The position numbers were made by a program, and so were the translations under genes. DNA of 19,675 nt from Octopus sinensis (taxonomy: Eukaryota). How positions within the stretch are numbered: the first letter of the stretch is position 1; each line of letters starts with the position of its first letter. The stretch is from positions 1-19,675 of the forward strand of contig NW_021824117.1 of the NCBI RefSeq assembly GCF_006345805.1. The letters are read 5' to 3'. The notes beneath the pieces were generated by a model. The model was given only the letters and a program-made list of their open reading frames with translations, was not told where the DNA came from and searched no databases. Below, in pieces: positions 1,935-19,411 of this stretch.

Positions 1935-3955
1935 TGTAACTTTGATAGGTTTCGGCCAGTATAGGCCCCAGGCCATGTCTAACTTAATAGCACCACCTGG
2001 TCAAGTCATTCAGTCACATATTGAGTACCACGTCTCACTCTAGCAAAGGGTTATTATTGTTGGAGACATACCCGGGTGTGTGAGGTTGGTCCGGGATTTT
2101 TTGAAGAAATCTGTCCAGTGAACTTTCAATTTTATGGGAACCATTTCCGTTTTGACGTATTTTGGTATGGTATTAAAGAGAGCTTTTGGTATGGTATTAA
2201 AGTAAAGTAGTTGTGACGTAATGTTGCTATGTGTCTTGAGTTCAAATTTTTGTGGTGAGCGGATACCACGGGGACCAAGTCTTGGATGGATTTTAAAATT
2301 GATGCCAACATCATTTGTGCAATATTGATGGAATATTTTCCACGTCACACAAATGGCGGTGTTGGAGAAAGTAGACGTTGAGTTTTTTAGTCAACCCCAA
2401 TAGTCAATGCCTCTCATGCCGCCTATCTTTCTTGTTATTGACCTCTGGAGTGCTTCCACTTTCATAATGAGTTGTTTCGTGTGGGGAGACCACAGTGGGC
2501 AACAGTACTCAAGGTGGGGTCGGACAAAAGTAGAGTAGAGAAGGATAATGTGGGCACCTCTAGACCGGAAAGTTCTCAGAATCCAGGAGCACATCTTGCG
2601 GGCCAAGCCAGCCTTGCTGTTTACGTGGGTCCTCCAGCTTAGATTGTTATCAACAATTACTCCAAGGTCTCTGGTGTTATTGGATGATACTATGCATATG
2701 GTAGTTTCCAAAGTGGATCAAATTAAACTTATCTTCATTTAAAAGCATATTGTTTTTTTCTTTCTATTGGACAATAGCAAACAGATCCGAAGGCATGTTC
2801 GGTCCTCCATACGGTTTATGGCTTTCTGGAGTTTGGAATCATCTGCAAAGATTTTCAATGTAGAATGTTTGATGACGTCTACTGAGTAATTGATGTAGCT
2901 AATGAAAGGGAGTGGGTCCAACACAATACCTTGTGGGACACCACTACTGACTTTGGTTAAGCTGGGTCGGATTCCCTCAAACACAACATGTTGGGTTCTG
3001 TTTGTCAGAAAACACTTTATCCACTTCAGCAGCTTTCCACGGGCTCCAATGTTGAACCGTTTCTTCAGCAGGATTTTGTGGTCCACTCTGTCAAATGCTT
3101 TGCTGAAATCAAGGTGTATGAGGTCAGTGTTGGGGCCCTCTCTCAACGCTTTTAAGATGTCATCAAAATGGTGCAGAAGCCGCGACACGCAGTCCCTGCC
3201 ATCAGGGAAACCATGCTGGTTGGGGTTCAGCAGATTGTTGTCTTCGAGGAATTGAGTTATTCGCGATCTCACCCCACTCTCAAATACTTTAATGATGTGA
3301 GAAGTGAGTGAAATGGGACGGTAGTTCACTGGAAGAGATTTGTTTCCCTTTTTGAAGACTGGAACGACAGACTGGGAAAGAAAATAATCAGGAATGTAGC
3401 CTGCATCAATTGAGCTTCTCCAGAGCTCAGTTAGAGGTGGGTGCAATTTGATGTCGATACATCTTCAGTACAGTGGCGGGGAACTCATCGGGACCTACTG
3501 CCGAGTTGTGCTTGATCTTATTTATTTCTGTTAGGATATCAGGGGCACCAAAATGTATGTCAGATATGGTTAGTTGTGGGTTCACATCACAGATATTAGC
3601 CAGATCAAACGCATTAGCGTTACTGAAAACAGAGCGGTATTGCCTCTGCAGTATCCTCGCACATGGATTTTGCATCTTCGTGTAGAGTGTTGTTCTCATG
3701 AACCAGAGGACCAACAGTGGAAGCAGTGACCTCATGTTTTGTTTTTTTTTTTTGCAAATGAAAAGAAGACTTTTGGATTGAGTTTTATTTTCTCCATGGC
3801 CCCAATTCTCCTCAGCTGCTCTTTGCTTGCTAATGATGGTCATCATGCTCTTTTGCGGGGTTGTGTCCTTTCGATTCGAGTGATGCAATGGCAGTGGAAT
3901 GGGTGCGTTGCTGCTGCAGCAGTATTTATGTTGATTGATTTTCTTGTTAATTCTA
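1933..3955 (-). mobile_element. 5'-truncated, frameshifted non-LTR retrotransposon (CR1/L2-group LINE): ORF2 reverse transcriptase plus 3' end
   Basis: Motifs across frames: IKLNPKVFFSFAK, VGPL, SAVGPDEFP, YRPISLTSHIIKVFE, QHGF, LDFSKAFDRVDH, SSGVPQG, IFADDSKL, RDLGVIVD, RPHLEYCCPLWSPH. Several frameshifts and deletions. Flanked by TA microsatellites. Confidence 0.92.
2739..3446 (-). pseudogene. LINE reverse transcriptase core fragment (235 aa open stretch)
   Basis: RT motifs LDFSKAFD, GVPQG and FADD in one frame, with frameshifts at both ends. Confidence 0.88.
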
Positions 3956-4035: not shown

Positions 4036-4061
4036 TATATATATAATTAATTAATAATAAT

Positions 4062-4314
4062 AATATTAGGGAATATATCCAAACTTACAGGGAAAAATAG
4101 ATTAGGATTAAATCCAATTTTATAGTATAATATATTATATTATATTATATTATATTAGAGATAAAACACTATTAGGCAAATCAAACAGTGAAAAATATAA
4201 GCCAATACATAAAATAATTAAAAAATATAAAAGTAAAATAAAAAAATAAAAAATAAAAATTATTTAAATAATTTAAACTTATAAATTCTATAAATTTTAT
4301 ATATATATATACAA

Positions 4315-4346
<32 letters not shown>

Positions 4347-4711
4347 ATTTTTATATTTATATATTATTTTATTTATTAATTAATTAATTAATTTAAAATT
4401 TTTTTAAAATATATATCAAAAGTATTATCTTTTATTAAACTTTTAATACTTTTGATATATATTTAAAAAAAAAAATAAATAAATTGATTAATTAATTAAA
4501 TAATATATAAATATAAAATATACATACATACATATATATATATATTTGTATATATATATAAAATTATTAAAATTTATAAGTTTAAATTATTTAAATAATT
4601 TTTTATTTTTTATTTTTACTTTTATATTTTTTAATTAATTTTATGTATTGGCTTATATTTTTCACTGTTTGATTTGCCTAATAGTGGTTTATCTCTAATC
4701 AATATAATATA

Positions 4712-5170: not shown

Positions 5171-5493
5171 TATGTTGTATGTATAATATATACTAATTTT
5201 ATACTATTGAATTCTGTGTATAATTCACTAAAAAATATTTCGTTGTTAAGTAGATATCGGCGTCTTTCAAGTTGAGTCTATATAATATACAATAATGTTA
5301 GTTAAGCATATTCAAACTGCTACCGCGCGTGACTGAGATTAGCCAAATAATGCATAAGACGTAATTGTTAGAAGTCCAAAATGCAATTACTTTCATTTTA
5401 CAATCAATCAATACACACATAATATATATATATGATATATATATATATATTATATGAATAGAGTAAAACCATATTAGGCAAATCAAACAGTGA
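4662..5493. repeat. Large inverted repeat (arms ~4662-5010 / 5161-5493) around a (TA)n spacer
   Basis: For example, tagactcaacttgaaagac (~4892) pairs with gtctttcaagttgagtcta (~5262). Arms differ mainly by small indels. Confidence 0.85.
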
Positions 5494-5839
5494 TGGACAT
5501 AATATATATATATATATAATATATATATATATATAATATATATATTATACCAAAATTTAATTTACGAAGTGGTCCATTATTCTATATTATCCATGTAAAC
5601 TAATTAAAAAAATGATAATAACAGAATCAATGACACAAGCAATAGCAGGCCAAAAATAGCCTTAAATAGCCGAGGGATTAGAATTAATCAAAGGACATAC
5701 TAAGTATGTCTACCTGCTTGAAATAACAGTCAAAGCTCTTATTAAATCGCCAAAAATACACTGATGAAAACTACAGAAATTAAACGAAGGCAAAATCAGG
5801 TTAAGACAATCTACTAACATACATTTAAGTTTCTGGACT

Positions 5840-5893
5840 CACGTGAACCGGTTTCTGCATTGGTAAAATAAGCCTTAGCTTCTTCAGCACGCG
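5840..5893 (-). ncRNA. Minimal type-I hammerhead ribozyme (left arm copy)
   Basis: Minus strand reads CGCGTG-CTGAAGA-aGC...GCa-GAAA-CCGG-TT-CACGTG. Stem III palindrome is ACCGGT. Stem II is weak. Confidence 0.68.
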
Positions 5894-5978
5894 TTACCAT
5901 GATTAGAGATTATCAACCCATCGTCTTGAAGTCTGTGCTGCAATTGATTCTGCAACTGGGAATCTCTAATCATGGTAA

Positions 5979-6032
5979 CACGTGCTGAAGAAGCTAAGGC
6001 TTATTTTGCCAGTGCAGAAACCGGTTCACGTG
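5979..6032 (+). ncRNA. Minimal type-I hammerhead ribozyme (right arm copy)
   Basis: CACGTG(5979-84)-CTGAAGA(5985-91)-aGC...GCa-GAAA(6017-20)-CCGGTT-CACGTG(6027-32). 6-bp stem I. Predicted GUU cleavage after 6026. Confidence 0.72.
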
Positions 6033-6647
6033 AGTCCAGATACTTAAATGTATGTTAGTAGATTGTCTTAACCTGATTTTGCCTTCGTTTGATTTCTGTA
6101 GTTTTCATCAGTGTATTTATGGCGATTTAATAAGAACTTTGACTGTTATTTCAAGCAGTTGAATCTTTTTACGGCAAAAGACACCATTTACAGAAACATT
6201 CAGTGTAGAAGTAATCTTTCATATTGAATATTCCTCTTTTCCTAGAGTTAGGATTTTTTTTTGAGAAAAAAAAAAGAGATTATTGTTGCAAATTGAAATA
6301 ACAAAATTCAAAAGAGCTTTTATAAATTTTCTCAGAAATAAATTTCATTCTATAGAAATGAAACTAACCAAAGCTAAACTTTACGATGATTCTGATAACA
6401 TTTGGTGTCATATCTAAACAGCAAAACACGATTTCTGTTCTGGTGATTTTAATACGATATATTATACGAACCAATGCTGTAATCTCTTAAAAGACAAAAT
6501 TCATGCAAATATCTGAATTTCTGTATGTTTGTATTATTTTACGACCAGCGGTTGCGACGATCTATTTGTTATATTTGACAAGCCATAAATGACTGCCACT
6601 GTTAAATAAATTAGCTTTTGAATAAAAAAAAAAACTGAAGTGTATTT

Positions 6648-7977: not shown

Positions 7978-8049
<72 letters not shown>

Positions 8050-8094
8050 GTAAAAAGTGAAAAAACTACAGAAGGCTTAAAGGTTAAGAAATAT

Positions 8095-9407
8095 ATATAT
8101 TTGCGTCAATATGTCTGAAGAATATTAAAAATTAAAAAAAAATTTTTTTTTTTCTTACAATGACATAATTTAGAAGAAAGACCGGTTTCGCGTTCAGCTT
8201 TTCAAATTTCTTGCGACGTTATGCTTATCTTGAACAGTTATCTTTATGTTTATGTTTAAAAGAGTTCTAAATAAGGGGAGGTAATGAGTGATTTCTTCCG
8301 GTGTAAGGGAGATAATCGCTTAAAATTGTTTTTTAATTTTTTTCCTTTCCCTTGGTGTAAATTTCTCTGTATCAGTATGTTGGCATGTACTTTTCAATGA
8401 AGAATGTTTCCTTGTTTAGTCTAATTTGTGTTGATGATCCGATAGCACATTGGTAAAATGGAAAGATTAAAAATTGTGGTAGTAATTGCTTTGCGCATTT
8501 CTCAATGTGCTCGCTAAAAGGTATCATTCTGTATTCTGGGAATGCAATCTGTTGTCGATGCAGTGTGCATCTACGTCTGAGTGATAGTCCCGTGGATCCC
8601 ACGTAGTCTTGGTGGCAGCCCGAGCATTTATGACATAAATTATGTTTTCAGAGGCACAAGTAAAGTTAGATTGATCTTGAATTTCTGTCCCTCTTTTAAA
8701 GAGGAATTCTGATCCTTCTAGCAGGTTGGACAGTTGCACAGTTCGATCTACCACATTTTTTTACTTTTGCATTCGTAATTTCAGAAAACAATTGTGCCTT
8801 TGTGAGAATCTTTTTAAGTGATTTAGGTTGTTTGTTTAGCTTTTAATGATTTGGTGTATGTTTAGAATTCCTTTAATTTGGGGTCCTTATGAAGTATTGG
8901 TAAATTCTGGGTGATGATGGTGAAGGCTTCTTTGTTTTGAGGTTGTATGTAGATATGTAAGGTAGTATTTTCGGGGAAGGTGTGTTGTGGTTGAACTTTC
9001 TTAAAGTTTCTATGTTGATTTCTGTTGCACGTCTGATCCCATCCTCTATGAGTTGAGCTGGGTAATGTCTGTCAGTTAGGGTGTTTTTGAGTTCTTGCAG
9101 TCTAAAGTTCCTGGTATTTTGTTCTGACACTATTGTGCATATCCTTCTTGCAAGGTTGAAGGAGATGTTTGTTTTAGTGTGTCTTGGGTGGCATGAATTA
9201 AAAAGAAGGTATTGTTTGGCGGTCTGTGGCTTTGTAAAAAATGTCTGTTTCTATTTTAAGTTTAATTTTTTAATTAGTATATCCAAGAACGGGAGCTCCT
9301 TTTGGTTGTATTCCATTGTGAACTGTATATTTGGGTTTATGCTGTTCAATAGGTTTTTAAATTTTAGGAGTTTATCTGTGTTTTCATTCCAGAGTATAAA
9401 ACAATTG
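8095..9407 (-). mobile_element. 5'-truncated Penelope-like element: RT C-terminus/thumb, GIY-YIG endonuclease and 3' UTR
   Basis: Minus-strand translations: CFILWNE, NPNIQFTME, ELPFLDILI, QYLLFNSCHPRHTKTNI, LARRICTIVS, RHYP, FTCASENIIYVI...DYVGSTGLSLRRRCTLH, RLNKETFFIEKY. Frameshifted. Confidence 0.92.
8174..8212 (-). ncRNA. Hammerhead-like motif with U3-A8 core in the PLE 3' UTR
   Basis: Minus strand reads AAGAAAt-TTGAAAA-GC-tgaac-GC-GAAA-CCGG-TC-TTTCTT. It lies ~160 bp 3' of the GIY-YIG stop on the same strand. Stem I needs a 1-nt bulge. Confidence 0.6.
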
Positions 9408-9722
9408 ATTAAACCTTCGCCAAGTTAAATATATAAACCACCTGAAGAATGACTGTAACTCGAAAATTTTAAGAATTGAACAGCCATGAAACGATCGTAG
9501 TGTAATATTAATTATCTTTTTTAATAATTTTGATATATATTTAAATAATATAAGTTAATTAATCTTATGTATTGGCTTAAGTTTTTCATCGTATGATTTG
9601 CCTAATAGTGGTTTTATCTCTAATTTAATATAATATAATATTTTACTATAAAATTGGATTCAATCCTAAATCTGATTTTTCCCTATAAGTTTGGATTTAT
9701 TCCCTAATATTTTCTTATTAAT
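9408..9722 (+). mobile_element. Non-coding HHR-bearing interspersed repeat (solo PLE pseudo-LTR or retrozyme-like)
   Basis: Contains the HHR at 9439-9502. Its downstream part is homologous to 4062-4215 (reverse) and 4441-4715. Ends in (TA)n. Confidence 0.6.
9439..9502 (+). ncRNA. Minimal type-I hammerhead ribozyme, intact core
   Basis: CAC-CTGAAGA(9442-48)-ATGACTGT...ACAGCCAT-GAAA(9488-91)-CGATCG-TA-GTG. Stem II has 7/8 pairs, stem III palindrome is ACGATCGT, and predicted GUA cleavage is after 9499. Confidence 0.82.
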
Positions 9723-9793
9723 TTATATATGTATATATATATACATATGCATGTTGCACACATGCATAGAACACACACACACATATAATTGTA

Positions 9794-10469
9794 TGAAAAT
9801 CTTTGCAGATGATTCCAAACTCTAGAAAGCCATAAACGGCATGAGAGACCAAACATGCCATCAGTCAGATCCATTTGCTATTGTCCAATGGATGGAAAGA
9901 AACAATATGCTTTTAAATGAAGATAAGTTTAATTTGATCCACTTTGGGAAAGAGGATACTCTGAAATGACCATATGCTCTTTCCCTCGGGCGACTCCCTA
10001 GTGTCATCCAACAACACCAGAGATCTTGGAGTAATTGTTGATAACAATCTAAGCTGGAGGACCCACGTAAACAGCAAGGTTGGCTTGACCTGCAAGATGT
10101 GCTCCTGGATTCTGAGAACTTTTCAGTCTAGAGATGCCTACACCATCATCCTTCTCTACTCTACTTTTGCCCGACCCCACATTGAGTACTTTTGCCCACT
10201 GTGCCCCCCCCCATACGAAGCAACTCATTGTGAAAGTAGAAGCACTCCTGAGGTCAATAACAAGAAAGATAGACGGCATGAGAGGCATTGACTATTGGGG
10301 TCGACTAAAAAAACGCAACGTCTACTTTCTCCAACACCGCCAGGAGCGCTACATCAATTGTGTGACGTGGAAAATATTCCATCAATATTGCACAAATGAT
10401 GTTGGCATCAATTTTAAAATCCATCCAAGACTTGGTCCCCGTGCTATCCGCCCACTACAAAAATCGAAC
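9794..10469 (+). mobile_element. Second, doubly truncated copy of the CR1/L2-group LINE at 1933-3955 (opposite orientation)
   Basis: Runs from KIFADDSKL to HPRLGPR and closely matches the reverse complement of ~2240-2857. Confidence 0.92.
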
Positions 10470-13007: not shown

Positions 13008-13474
13008 TATGTTTGACTTTTGCTTTATGTCTGTACAAGTTGGCTCCAAGTCTCACCCAGAGACCTCAAGAGACAACAGGTTGGAAGTTCACGTTGTTGT
13101 TATGCCTAGTGTGCCATATATTTGGGTTTTTTTGGTGTGGTACTAGTGAATGTCTAATACATAGATTTAAAAAAAAAAGTTTGTTTTAAAACTTGAGATT
13201 ACATAGAAAGTATTTTGCGTAGGATATGAGCAGTTCCCATGAGCACTATCTTTTGAATTTCTGCCATTTTGGGGTTTCCTGGTATCTGAGTTAGGTAGCA
13301 ATCAGCCCCTTTTGCTATCATTCCCAGGACATCTATGACAACAGGTATTGTTTTAGTCTTCAGGTCCCACATTTTGCTGATTTCTATTTCAAGATCTTTA
13401 TATTTGCTCAGTTTTTGGTAGGTCTTGACAGATACGTTATATCGATTGGGACAGTCATATCAATGAGGAGGCAT
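13007..13474 (-). mobile_element. R4/Dong restriction-like endonuclease 3' fragment
   Basis: CLLIDMTVP...KLSKYKDLEIEISKMWDLKTKTIPVVIDVLG...IQKIVLMGTAHILRKILSM*, then 3' UTR and (TAA)n. Confidence 0.88.
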
Positions 13475-13897: not shown

Positions 13898-14420
13898 TAT
13901 ACACACATCAAATTAGACTGCTGGGAAAGAAAACATCCTAACATCGGGCTACAGCAAATAACCTTCGATGCCAAAACCCCACTAAGTATCCTAGCTGTCC
14001 CTAATAACACTGTTCTCTGCAGCAGTACTAAATTGGGTTCTATGTCTATTTCCTCTATATATCTCTTCAGATCTTTAGGGATAGTTCCCGATGCACCTAT
14101 AACTACTGGGATACCTTTTACCCGCACTTCCCATAGTCTCTGTAATTCGATGGCTAGGTCCTGGTACTTTGCTATTTTCTCTATTCCTCTCATATTAATT
14201 TTTTCATCATTTGGTATTGTAAAATCAATTTATCTGGCACTTTCTATTCGCTTTACCCACTACTACCAAATCAGACCTTCTAGCTTCTATTACTCTGTCA
14301 GTCTGAATGTTAAAGTCCCACAACATCCTGTATTCCTAACTTTCTACTACTTTACCAGCTTCGTGTTCATACCATTTATCAATATGTTCAAATCCTAGCT
14401 TTCTACTAAGCTCCCAGTGG
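13898..14420 (-). mobile_element. R4/Dong restriction-like endonuclease 3' fragment (different subfamily)
   Basis: HWELSRK...KWYEH...LWDFNIQTDRVIEARRSDLVVV...IDFTIP...EKIAKYQDLAIELQRLW...IPVVIGASG...LQRTVLLGTARIL. Confidence 0.9.
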
Positions 14421-16220: not shown

Positions 16221-16592
16221 GGAACGTGGAAGCACTCCGTCGGTTACGACGATGAGGGTTCCGGTTGATCCGAATCAACGGAACAGCCTGCTCGTGAAAT
16301 TAACTCCACAGACACGTGCACCCTTAACGTAGTTCTCGGGGATATTCAGCGTGACACAGAGAGTGACAAGGCCGGCCCTTTGAAATACAGGTACAACAGA
16401 AACAGTAAGTAAGAGTGAGAGAAAGTTGTGGTGAAAGAGTAGAGCAGGGATCACCACCACCCCCTGCCGGAGCCTCGTGGAGCTTTTAGGTGTTTTCGCT
16501 CAATAAACACTCACAACGCCCGGTCTGGGAATCGAAACCGCGATCCTATGACCGCGAGTCCGCTGCCCTAACCACTGGGCCATTGCGCCTCC
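16221..16592 (-). mobile_element. tRNA-derived SINE, apparently near full length
   Basis: Minus 5' end reads GGAGGCGCAATGGCCCAGTGGTTAGGGCAGCGGACTCGCGGTCATAGGATCGCGGTTTCGATTCCCAGACC. A box is TGGCCCAGTGG and B-box-like motif is GGTTTCGATTCC. A ~300-bp tRNA-unrelated body follows, ending at (CATA)n. Confidence 0.88.
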
Positions 16593-16758: not shown

Positions 16759-16824
16759 GAGGCGCAATGACCCAGTGGTTAGGGCAGCGGACTCGCGGTT
16801 GTAGGATCGCGGTTTCGATTCCCA
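16759..16824 (+). mobile_element. tRNA-like head only of the same SINE family, head-to-head with 16221-16592
   Basis: Reverse complement of ~16526-16591 with about 3 substitutions. It stops right after the B box. Confidence 0.88.
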
Positions 16825-17470
16825 AAAACAGGAAAATAGCATTCAGCCAACACATAGACATTTGCGCCAATAACAAAAATGCAAGCTTCAGAATTGTTCC
16901 CCTCTACCAATTGAGGGACGATACAACCTGTAGCCAACGAATTAGTAAAGAGCCTCTCATTATTACGAAATACAGACCCTTTTTGAACACGTCTACAACA
17001 AGCGACATATCCACCACGGCCTTAGAATAACACAAACACACACACAAATATTAAAAAATGATACACTCAAGAGATCCCCAATCACTGCTATAATCCATAA
17101 CGAGTCACTTTTAGGTCACTTGACCATTTAATATCCTACTACTATCATACTACCTACATTCCTTCTTATTCTCCATTCTCTTTCTTCTTCTTCTTCTTCT
17201 TCTTCTTCTTCTTCTTCCCTACCAAGAATTCACAACGACCTCGAACCCACAAGAGAGACAGAGACAGGCAGAGACAGGCAGAGACAAGTAAAATGCCCCT
17301 TGTATTTGAATACTCTGCAAATATTCTTTAAAAAAACTTTTCTTTCAATTTTTCCAAAATTCAATTGTTTTCTATACTTGCAGTTGAAAAAGTCTCAATG
17401 ACTGAAACCGGTACTGAAATGTTTTTTATAAAATAATTTTAGCATTTTCTACATTGATTCTTTTCCAAAT
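16825..17470 (+). mobile_element. Penelope-like element 3' fragment (GIY-YIG C-terminus and 3' UTR)
   Basis: RKIAFSQHIDICA...FRIVPLYQL...QRISKEPLIITKYRPFLN aligns with RMIPFSEHIEKCA...FLIFPFYQC...IRLNKETFFIEKYMP at 8372-8602. Confidence 0.82.
17378..17419 (+). ncRNA. Minimal type-I hammerhead ribozyme with compensatory U3-A8 core
   Basis: ttgCAG-TTGAAAA(17384-90)-AGTC-tcaat-GACT-GAAA(17404-07)-CCGG-TA-CTGaaa. All three stems pair. Predicted GUA cleavage after 17413. Confidence 0.78.
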
Positions 17471-17706: not shown

Positions 17707-17835
17707 TTTTTTATATTATATACAAGTATATATATATATATACGTATATATATATATATATACATACACGTATATCTATATATACGTAATATATATATAG
17801 ATGTATATGTGTGTGTGTGTGTGTGTGCATTGCGA

Positions 17836-18120
17836 AACAGGATCTCCCAGCAGCCCCCCTCTTGACCCAGAGCAGCACTACCTCCTCCAGGCACTTGAAG
17901 TAGGCCTCCGTGTTGAGTGTGAGGCTGTGTTGGAAGAGAAGTGGAGCCATAACGTCTCCATCACTAGCGATCACTCCAGACACCACGAGGTTGACTGGAT
18001 GTTTGACATTTACCACTCTCCGTTCCTGTCTTCAGATTGCACTCTCCTCCGTTTGACACAAAAACATTCTGAAATGTTCGTATGGGAGCTTCCAGCGCGA
18101 ATGCCAAGCAGTACAGCAAA
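17836..18120 (-). pseudogene. Internally deleted Tc1/mariner-superfamily transposase remnant
   Basis: [24 protein letters not shown]...[20 protein letters not shown] matches the K(H/F)PxxxMVWG segment between the first and second catalytic Asp. It is cut off before the QQD motif. Confidence 0.8.
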
Positions 18121-18125
18121 TGCCT

Positions 18126-18196
18126 TCTACTATGGCCTCGGGCCAACCAAAGACTTGTGAGTGGATTTGGTTGACGGAAACTGAAAGAAGCCTGTC
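18126..18196 (+). mobile_element. Short 3' tail of an interspersed retro-repeat
   Basis: ttgtgagtggatttggttgacggaaactgaaagaagcc followed by (TA)n. Recalled as a common cephalopod SINE tail, not verified. Confidence 0.4.
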
Positions 18197-18574: not shown

Positions 18575-18606
<32 letters not shown>

Positions 18607-18625
18607 CAACAAGAATGGATTAAAA

Positions 18626-18712
18626 TCTCGGTACAATTGTTTCGTACGAGGACATCTTTAATAAGCTACAAAAATGCAGTAAATATAGCTGGCTCGTACT
18701 CGTCAGCCGAAA
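18626..18712 (-). ncRNA. Type-I hammerhead ribozyme, intact (left arm)
   Basis: Minus strand reads TTTCGG-CTGACGA-GTACGAG...CTCGTAC-GAAA-CAATTG-TA-CCGAGA. Confidence 0.88.
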
Positions 18713-19172
18713 AAACATCAGAGATTCCCAAACATCAAAAGGGGTAGATACAAATGAGGGTGTAAGTTTAACTGCATTTGTACCCAAAATTTCTTCACAT
18801 AACTTGATTAATAATTCACTATGAACTATATGGACATGCACATATTCTGTAAGTTCAAGACTTTTCATCGGATCTCCAGGAATCGAACTTCTCTGTGATT
18901 CTTGTAAATTTCAATAACAATCTGTTCTTCTACACGATATGACAGTCACTTTGCTTCTTACTCGGATTCTCAGAAATTTCGCATGACTGTATCCAAAATT
19001 TCTTCACATAACTTGATTAACAATTCACTATGAGCTATATATGGACATGAACAAATTCTGTAAGTTCAAGACCTTTCATCGGATCTCCAGGAATCGAACT
19101 TTCTTCAATGCAGTTAAACTTACACCCTTATTTGTATCTACCCCTTTTGATGTTTGGGAATCTCTTATGTTT

Positions 19173-19260
19173 TTTCGGCTGACGAGTACGAGCCATCTAT
19201 ATTTACTGCATTTTTTGTAGCTTATTAAAGATGTCCTCGTACGAAACAATTGTACCGAGA
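19173..19260 (+). ncRNA. Type-I hammerhead ribozyme, intact (right arm)
   Basis: TTTCGG-CTGACGA(19179-85)-GTACGAG/CTCGTAC (7-bp stem II)-GAAA(19243-46)-CAATTG-TA-CCGAGA. Stem III palindrome is ACAATTGT. Predicted GUA cleavage after 19254. Confidence 0.9.
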
Positions 19261-19411
19261 TTTTAATCCATTCTTGTTGCTTTTTCCTATTTGTAATCAC
19301 CCCACTTGTCGTATGGTTAACACCATATAGATTTCCGGTGCATCCTAGTTAAGGAGCATATTCATGTGAATTCATTAGAATTCACTTGAATCTCAATTAC
19401 TTAAACCGAGT

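Follow-up and report, generated by a model that had tools for sequence, protein, structure and literature searches.

A hammerhead core usually pairs C3 with G8, and the covariant U3-A8, found in a motif behind a PLE endonuclease of Octopus sinensis, poses the question of whether the letters at 3:8 mark a PLE lineage by descent, and whether this particular copy could still cut RNA. The motif lies in a stretch of 19,675 nucleotides (NCBI RefSeq assembly GCF_006345805.1, contig NW_021824117.1), hereafter the window, and a sequence-only reading had placed a U3-A8 hammerhead at 8174-8212. The motif is indeed there, in sense orientation to a PLE that we call PLE-A and 155 nt 3' of its frameshifted Neptune-type ORF; both the motif and its position 3' of the endonuclease are seen directly. 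The best explanation, to which we give a probability of about 80%, is that this is a type I minimal U3-A8 hammerhead in the 3' terminal region of a Neptune-type PLE that is broken and 5'-truncated and whose active family likely cut RNA after C17 as a dimer, and that the copy itself is likely impaired.

The minus-strand letters of 8205-8180 fit a type I minimal hammerhead: the core is U3-A8, stem II has 2 bp, helix III is the palindrome ACCGGU and the site is GUC. Its parts are the following:

8199-8205, minus strand: core box UUGAAAA, positions 3-9 (U3 U4 G5 A6 A7 A8 A9), from the sequence and a descriptor match
8190-8198, minus strand: stem II of 2 bp (G10.1-C11.1, then C-G) with a 5-nt loop and no bulged base after A9
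8180-8189, minus strand: G12-A13-A14-A15.1, palindromic helix III (ACCGGU) and U16.1-C17; in the sequence, GAAA is at 8189-8186, CCGG at 8185-8182 and U16.1-C17 at 8181-8180

The core residues U4 G5 A6 N7 N8 A9 and G12 A13 A14, the A15.1-U16.1 pair and H17 are all in place, and Watson-Crick pairing at 3:8 is present. Judged by these letters the motif is a hammerhead with a U3-A8 core, and from the hammerhead consensus cleavage is predicted between 8180 and 8179. It is not a new kind, because PLEs with U3-A8 hammerheads were already described in 2014 (PMC4209133), in the one paper on U3-A8 hammerhead ribozymes that our literature search found. Stem II, closed by G10.1-C11.1 and only 2 bp long, is unstable and is not predicted to form by itself; the minimum predicted for the homodimer differs from the clean active fold. 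The ACCGGU palindrome has a self-duplex energy of -8.3 kcal/mol, which permits dimer formation.

A chance match in AT-rich DNA would fit the silence of Rfam and the weak fold. There is no hammerhead among the Rfam matches listed for the whole window (the best 150 of 204, almost all of them microsatellite artefacts), neither of the two matches at E up to 10 in 8100-9700 is a hammerhead, and the related loci L001, L002 and L004, described below, have no hammerhead match; the test is weak for minimal motifs, since the canonical-core hammerhead at 9442 was missed too. Freely folded, 8165-8225 is no stabler than its shuffles (z +0.92), and all four stretches folded in this way are indistinguishable from shuffles. 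Against chance stand the position behind an endonuclease, the recurrence in a second element of the window (PLE-B) and in L002 and L004, and the shuffle controls, which refute such an origin. The pattern TTGAAAA-N5-30-GAAACCGGTH matches twice in the window (8180-8205 minus and 17384-17413 plus); 200 shuffles gave no match at all. A hammerhead descriptor, the strict rule of which was chosen after the motifs were known, matched 0 of 3000 shuffles (strict) and 6 of 3000 (relaxed) for the 315-nt 3' region of PLE-A, and in its strict form 0 and 3 of 3000 shuffles for L004 and L002, respectively, where the motif stands 111 and 174 nt after the stop. It finds five motifs in the 14,685 unmasked bases of the window, compared with averages over 150 shuffles of 0.007 under the strict and 0.27 under the relaxed rule. 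We regard a chance match as very improbable. One-mismatch matches at 614 (plus) and 18280 (minus) are low-complexity and were dropped.

The element behind which the motif lies is incomplete and decayed:

8361-9425, minus strand: PLE-A, a 5'-truncated, frameshifted Neptune-type ORF (tblastn and frame-aware alignment)
8046-8162, minus strand: PLE-A 3' tail, then a (CT)n/(TA)n microsatellite (from the sequence, with a presumed exact end)

The ORF comprises the end of the RT from the catalytic motif, the thumb, a CxxxxCxxC linker near 8757-8728 and, at the C-terminus, a GIY-YIG endonuclease ending at about 8372-8361 (minus strand). Read with X at the breaks it is identical to the protein P0001 at 286 of 315 positions (91%), with seven frameshifts against P0001 in about 950 nt, and a frame-aware alignment gives 248/346 identities with P0003, a relative that has RVT_1 plus a GIY-YIG match below the cutoff. 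Mytilus-named proteins are among the relatives of PLE-A; P0001 has no match in plasmids or phages, and Pfam has none for three window fragments of PLE-A and PLE-B. PLE-A combines an RT with a CCHH-bearing GIY-YIG endonuclease at the C-terminus, which is one of the Neptune criteria, and the linker, compared by eye with two Neptune and two Nematis rows, fits CX2-5CxxC with the longer Neptune spacing. In the account of PMC8557442 this linker is absent in Penelope/Poseidon and modified in Hydra, and the Nematis spacing is short. By the criteria in that account PLE-A is Neptune-type, a label that comes from motifs rather than from a tree of reference elements, and the Neptune clade is itself paraphyletic in the tree of PMC8557442. 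From the Neptune EN+ PLEs described there PLE-A differs in being a truncated, frameshifted copy. Truncated PLE copies normally retain the 3' hammerhead only (PMC4209133), and the arrangement here agrees, with a 3' hammerhead carried by a 5'-truncated copy; BLAST found no pLTR pair and no inverted 5'-truncated copy of PLE-A within the window.

Whether the copy is sound depends on stem I, which had been called imperfect, with the suspicion that the copy may be dead. The parts that bear on this are:

8207-8212, minus strand: proximal stem I, 5' strand, forming 6 Watson-Crick pairs with 8179-8174
8174-8179, minus strand: proximal stem I, 3' strand, pairing with 8212-8207
8206, minus strand: unpaired U between stem I and U3, either an extra base or U2.1 with a lost 1.1 partner
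8219-8224, minus strand: distal stem I, 5' strand, past an internal loop (predicted fold only; p 0.053)
8163-8168, minus strand: distal stem I, 3' strand (predicted fold only)

There are no pairs in register (2.1-1.1) and six Watson-Crick pairs at an offset of 1. The description as imperfect can be refined: the six pairs form once U8206 is kept out of the pairing, and the fold prediction adds another 6-bp helix (8224-8219 with 8168-8163) beyond them. Such a 6-bp proximal stem arises in 0.24% of shuffled flanks with Watson-Crick pairs only and in 1.6% with G-U pairs, and the energy of the two-part stem I alone does not differ significantly from shuffles (p 0.053). A two-part stem I is also predicted for L002, L004 and the 5985/5887 motifs, and not for the 17384 and 9442 motifs.

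The one-base shift, like the decay of the ORF, is directly seen, and would be accounted for by a single indel beside the core. L002 and L004 have U2.1-A1.1 where PLE-A has the unpaired U8206, so that the loss of a base at 1.1 is the simplest reading; the gain of a U would be equally possible. Given seven frameshifts in about 950 nt of the ORF, one indel in the 39-nt motif is unsurprising (about 25%, by a hand estimate). Because stem I is one nucleotide off register the copy is probably impaired, and it is probably dead; a natural hammerhead is known to be impaired by insertions next to position 3 (PMC3088659).

The same base could be seen in two other ways. U8206 might be a true family feature, a '2a' insertion in an attenuated yet active ribozyme, and not decay at all: natural insertions at this place are known, one of them in a U3 core (PMC3088659, PMC7151607), and the remainder of stem I pairs well. 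The natural core variants of Perreault et al. 2011 (PMC3088659) share U3-A8, a 2-bp stem II and insertions by position 3 with PLE-A, but the insertion examples given there are saltern RNAs, whereas the motif studied here is PLE-borne. That the known examples come from halophile RNAs and are impaired, that an unpaired U like 8206 is absent from the other six hammerheads scored in the window, L002 and L004 (0/6), and that the adjacent ORF is rich in small indels all make a family feature quite improbable. A sequencing or assembly indel, with the genomic copy intact, is in our view also unlikely. The damage to the ORF is mostly of 1-2 nt indels, five of the seven being losses, and this is a pattern that long-read assemblies also produce; however, PLE-A differs from P0001 at about 9% of amino acids and has apparently lost a longer stretch near its C-terminus, and both point to real age. 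We prefer decay of the copy by an indel beside the core.

The window holds further hammerheads with which that of PLE-A can be compared:

16821-16995, plus strand: PLE-B, consisting of the final ~57 codons from a related GIY-YIG endonuclease
17381-17416, plus strand: PLE-B U3-A8 hammerhead, core at 17384, with a 4-bp stem II, an ACCGGU palindrome and a 3-bp stem I in register
9439-9502, plus strand: canonical C3-G8 hammerhead, core at 9442, site at 9499, with a tail to ~9723
5979-6032, plus strand: C3-G8 hammerhead with the GAAACCGGU segment as in the U3-A8 copies, in the right arm of inverted repeat 5714-5911/5961-6158
5840-5893, minus strand: C3-G8 hammerhead, in the left arm of inverted repeat 5714-5911/5961-6158

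The motif at 8174-8212 does stand behind an endonuclease from a PLE family other than that of the 17384 copy, as had been proposed. The two endonuclease C-termini are related, as was also claimed, with 40% identity over 57 columns compared with a median of 36% for 93 relatives, and the claim of dissimilar UTR DNA and unrelated stems agrees with non-coding flanks that cannot be aligned (p 0.69 upstream and 0.24 downstream of the two U3-A8 hammerheads). Beside PLE-B there is a repeat head in two 95% identical copies, 16526-16590 (minus) and 16760-16824 (plus), the second of which is fused directly to PLE-B. This head looks tRNA-derived and resembles a SINE; ARAGORN detected no tRNA in it.

None of the three C3-G8 hammerheads (5887, 5985 and 9442) is tied to an ORF. 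The 9442 hammerhead lies head-to-head with the 5' truncation of PLE-A, an arrangement like that in Fig. S4 of PMC4209133, where a truncated PLE has a second, opposite-strand hammerhead at its 5' end. Its stems are unrelated to those of PLE-A, and an origin as PLE-A's own inverted copy was rejected, with unrelated tails (p 0.18) and no BLAST match; it imitates the inverted-copy arrangement but belongs to another family. A template switch and an independent insertion are candidate origins of the junction. Part of the 9442 tail is shared with an AT-rich repeat in palindromic arrangement (4049-4700, 5456-5493 and 9558-9723), and the other copies of that repeat, at 4049-4700 and 5456-5493, contain no hammerhead.

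The inverted repeat at 5714-6158 has 198-nt arms that are 96% identical, with an outward-facing C3-G8 hammerhead in each, and is likely a head-to-head PLE end that lacks an ORF. Stem II of its hammerheads apparently has an extra A on both sides. The 5887/5985 motifs have GAAACCGGU in common with both U3-A8 copies (four matches, 0.04 expected). A donor-like GT hexamer, CTTAAC and CTGTAG occur in this order in the tails of two hammerheads, at 8158-8066 (minus) and 6050-6101 (plus), which suggests a short spliceosomal intron. Overall, the tail of PLE-A is not significantly like those of the 5985/5887 elements (p 0.16 and 0.04 among 28 comparisons), and a kinship seen by eye from tail likeness was accordingly not used.

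A scan of genome contigs yielded five loci from 11 candidates (L001-L005). In L002 the stop is followed after 174 nt by a U3-A8 hammerhead, and in L004 an A3-U8 hammerhead lies 111 nt after the stop of the PLE ORF:

L004:3267-3306, plus strand: hammerhead with an A3-U8 core, a 7-bp stem I, an AGCGCU palindrome and a weak stem II (U-U then 2 bp)

L002 and L004 share only 29-36% identity with PLE-A. In L001, closely related to L002, the stop is followed by 155 nt of sequence with no hammerhead, and the contig ends short of the 174 nt of L002; the L003 contig ends within the ORF, and the match in L005 spans 36 residues and lacks a convincing motif. L001-L004 are four PLE contigs within one Campylobacteraceae-labelled MAG, and P0006 is likewise labelled as a bacterial MAG protein; the four contigs are likely eukaryotic contamination, from an animal host, of a bacterial MAG.

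For the trees, proteins were gathered with PLE-A as query, and L003 and L005 were excluded. FastTree was run on a rougher alignment of 105 of the 120 relatives (280 aa or longer), and IQ-TREE and AU tests on 33 hand-picked relatives plus five focal rows, by a quick search under LG+G4 with no mixture model. A HMMER search with PLE-B found 14 matches that were left out of the trees, and a word-indexed search with PLE-B yielded none from six candidates. IQ-TREE places PLE-A and PLE-B, the latter through 57 residues, in one 12-row subclade (SH-aLRT 98), and the six closest relatives of PLE-B all fall within the subclade of PLE-A; FastTree puts PLE-B outside it. P0002-P0005, P0007, P0008, P0010, P0011 and P0014 belong to this subclade as well. 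With PLE-B again represented by 57 residues, the AU tests reject none of four alternative groupings (p 0.11-0.20); for a clade uniting the 12-row subclade with L002, which is not rejected, p is 0.11.

When positions 3 and 8 are left free, all seven perfect-core hammerheads (five in the window, L002 and L004) prove to be Watson-Crick at 3:8, with C-G in three, U-A in three and A-U in one. What is conserved is the pairing at 3:8 and not its letters, which are a labile, compensated trait (C-G, U-A, A-U) gained more than once among PLEs. The hammerheads linked to an ORF all have A or U at 3:8 (three U3-A8 and one A3-U8), and none of the four is C3-G8, whereas our own count of the 56-row alignment of PMC4209133 gives 53 C3-G8, two U3-A8 and one U3-G8.

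Published U3-A8 hammerheads in PLEs include those of the Schistosoma Cercyon elements, where the covariation is described with about 1,300 copies in S. mansoni (PMC4209133). These have in common with PLE-A the type I form, the position 3' of the ORF, a palindromic helix III and U3-A8, and in one S. mansoni row the core box, UUGAAAA, is identical. PLE-A differs from them in its Neptune-type host, the lack of a bulge after A9, a stem II of 2 bp rather than 4-8, a longer helix-III palindrome (ACCGGU) and a stem I predicted in two parts. The Marsupenaeus japonicus PLE hammerhead (PMC4209133, Fig. S3) is like those of the window, L002 and L004 in that A9 is directly followed by stem II and the helix-III palindrome is longer, but unlike PLE-A it is C3-G8. 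A literature search on octopus hammerheads gave no title on this motif among the matches listed. A paper by Lunse, Weinberg and Breaker (RNA Biol) reportedly deals, to judge from the title, with small variants that are associated with PLEs and cleave as dimers, and it may cover the architecture of PLE-A. It lay outside our search, which found no paper on A3-U8 hammerheads, and prior print is possible.

The sequence-only reading had gone further and made U3-A8 a clade-level trait of this PLE lineage, kept as an inherited, fixed marker while the stems turn over. This stands in part. The two members of the subclade scored, PLE-A and PLE-B, are both U3-A8, share the core box and have unrelated stems, and the distant L002, whose grouping with the subclade is not rejected, is U3-A8 as well. 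The predominance of U3-A8 among the ORF-linked hammerheads sets them apart from the 2014 alignment, and in the Hydra clade, where all 26 rows are C3-G8 (PMC8557442, File S2), a single core type does prevail. Nor does host composition alone force U3-A8, because the C3-G8 hammerheads of the window sit in equally AT-rich flanks (GC 0.22 and 0.37). What does not stand is the firmness of the claim. Only two of the 12 subclade rows have a known core, the placement of PLE-B is unstable, and PLE-A was the query with which the protein set was collected. In L004 the pair is A3-U8, the window contains three C3-G8 hammerheads, one of which abuts the 5' end of PLE-A, and in PMC4209133 the Neptune-labelled Acropora row is C3-G8, as are three of three mollusc rows. 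Within Cercyon, the row S. mansoni (4) is U3-A8 and S. japonicum is C3-G8 with nearly the same stems (PMC4209133), the reverse of a core that is kept while stems turn over. The published sets are also biased, having been found with C3-G8 descriptors, as in the case of the Hydra-clade rows and their canonical descriptor (PMC8557442). An inherited marker seems to us possible, with the odds leaning somewhat against it, and that U3-A8 is fixed in the subclade holding PLE-A and PLE-B is a suggestion that we hold only tentatively. More doubtful is a broader proposal, namely that a widespread invertebrate Neptune-type branch has largely left C3-G8 for A/U, with U3-A8 in three families and A3-U8 in a fourth, on a compact build (no A9 bulge, a 2-4 bp stem II, a 4-nt helix-III palindrome and a two-part stem I) that CUGANGA descriptors and Rfam miss, and that the common ACCGGU permits heterodimer cleavage between families, even across core types.

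In the active family of PLE-A, transcription through tandem copies would bring two hammerheads together, and these would pair through ACCGGU to form helix III; the RNA would then be cut after C17 and the precursor trimmed, probably with help from the element's protein. PLE hammerheads are described as having low activity and depending on dimers (PMC4209133), and for a Poseidon PLE there are reports of rescue by a 3:8 swap, of protein-assisted cleavage, and of insertion in vitro for which hammerhead cleavage is dispensable (PMC11167929). U3-A8 would retain the tertiary pair, and plausibly arose from C3-G8 by way of a U-G intermediate such as that in the Saccoglossus row of PMC4209133.

Taken alone, the PLE-A hammerhead is an ordinary relic, with its value as a data point. 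Of the by-products, the A3-U8 motif of L004 and the lack of C3-G8 among the four ORF-linked motifs are the most interesting. Because all four have A/U and the published sets relied on C3-G8 descriptors, the number of ribozymes counted in invertebrate PLEs may be an underestimate. If the series C-G, U-G, U-A and A-U were mapped, it would put compensatory evolution at a catalytic tertiary pair to a natural test, and would bear on the question of selection for cleavage in PLE hammerheads.

Elsewhere in the window, the long inverted repeats at 4755-4975/5198-5420 and 18601-19285 (94-98%) have no hammerhead match. The minus-strand frames 13199-13459 and ~14000-14229, for which Pfam gave no match, resemble the restriction-like endonuclease ends of non-LTR elements, and the minus-strand frame 17828-18160 by eye resembles a piece of a Tc1/mariner transposase. 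A LINE-type RT remnant lies at 2040-3464 on the minus strand (Pfam RVT_1, E 7e-23), and an inverted partial copy of it, 84% identical, is present on the plus strand at 9794-10464.
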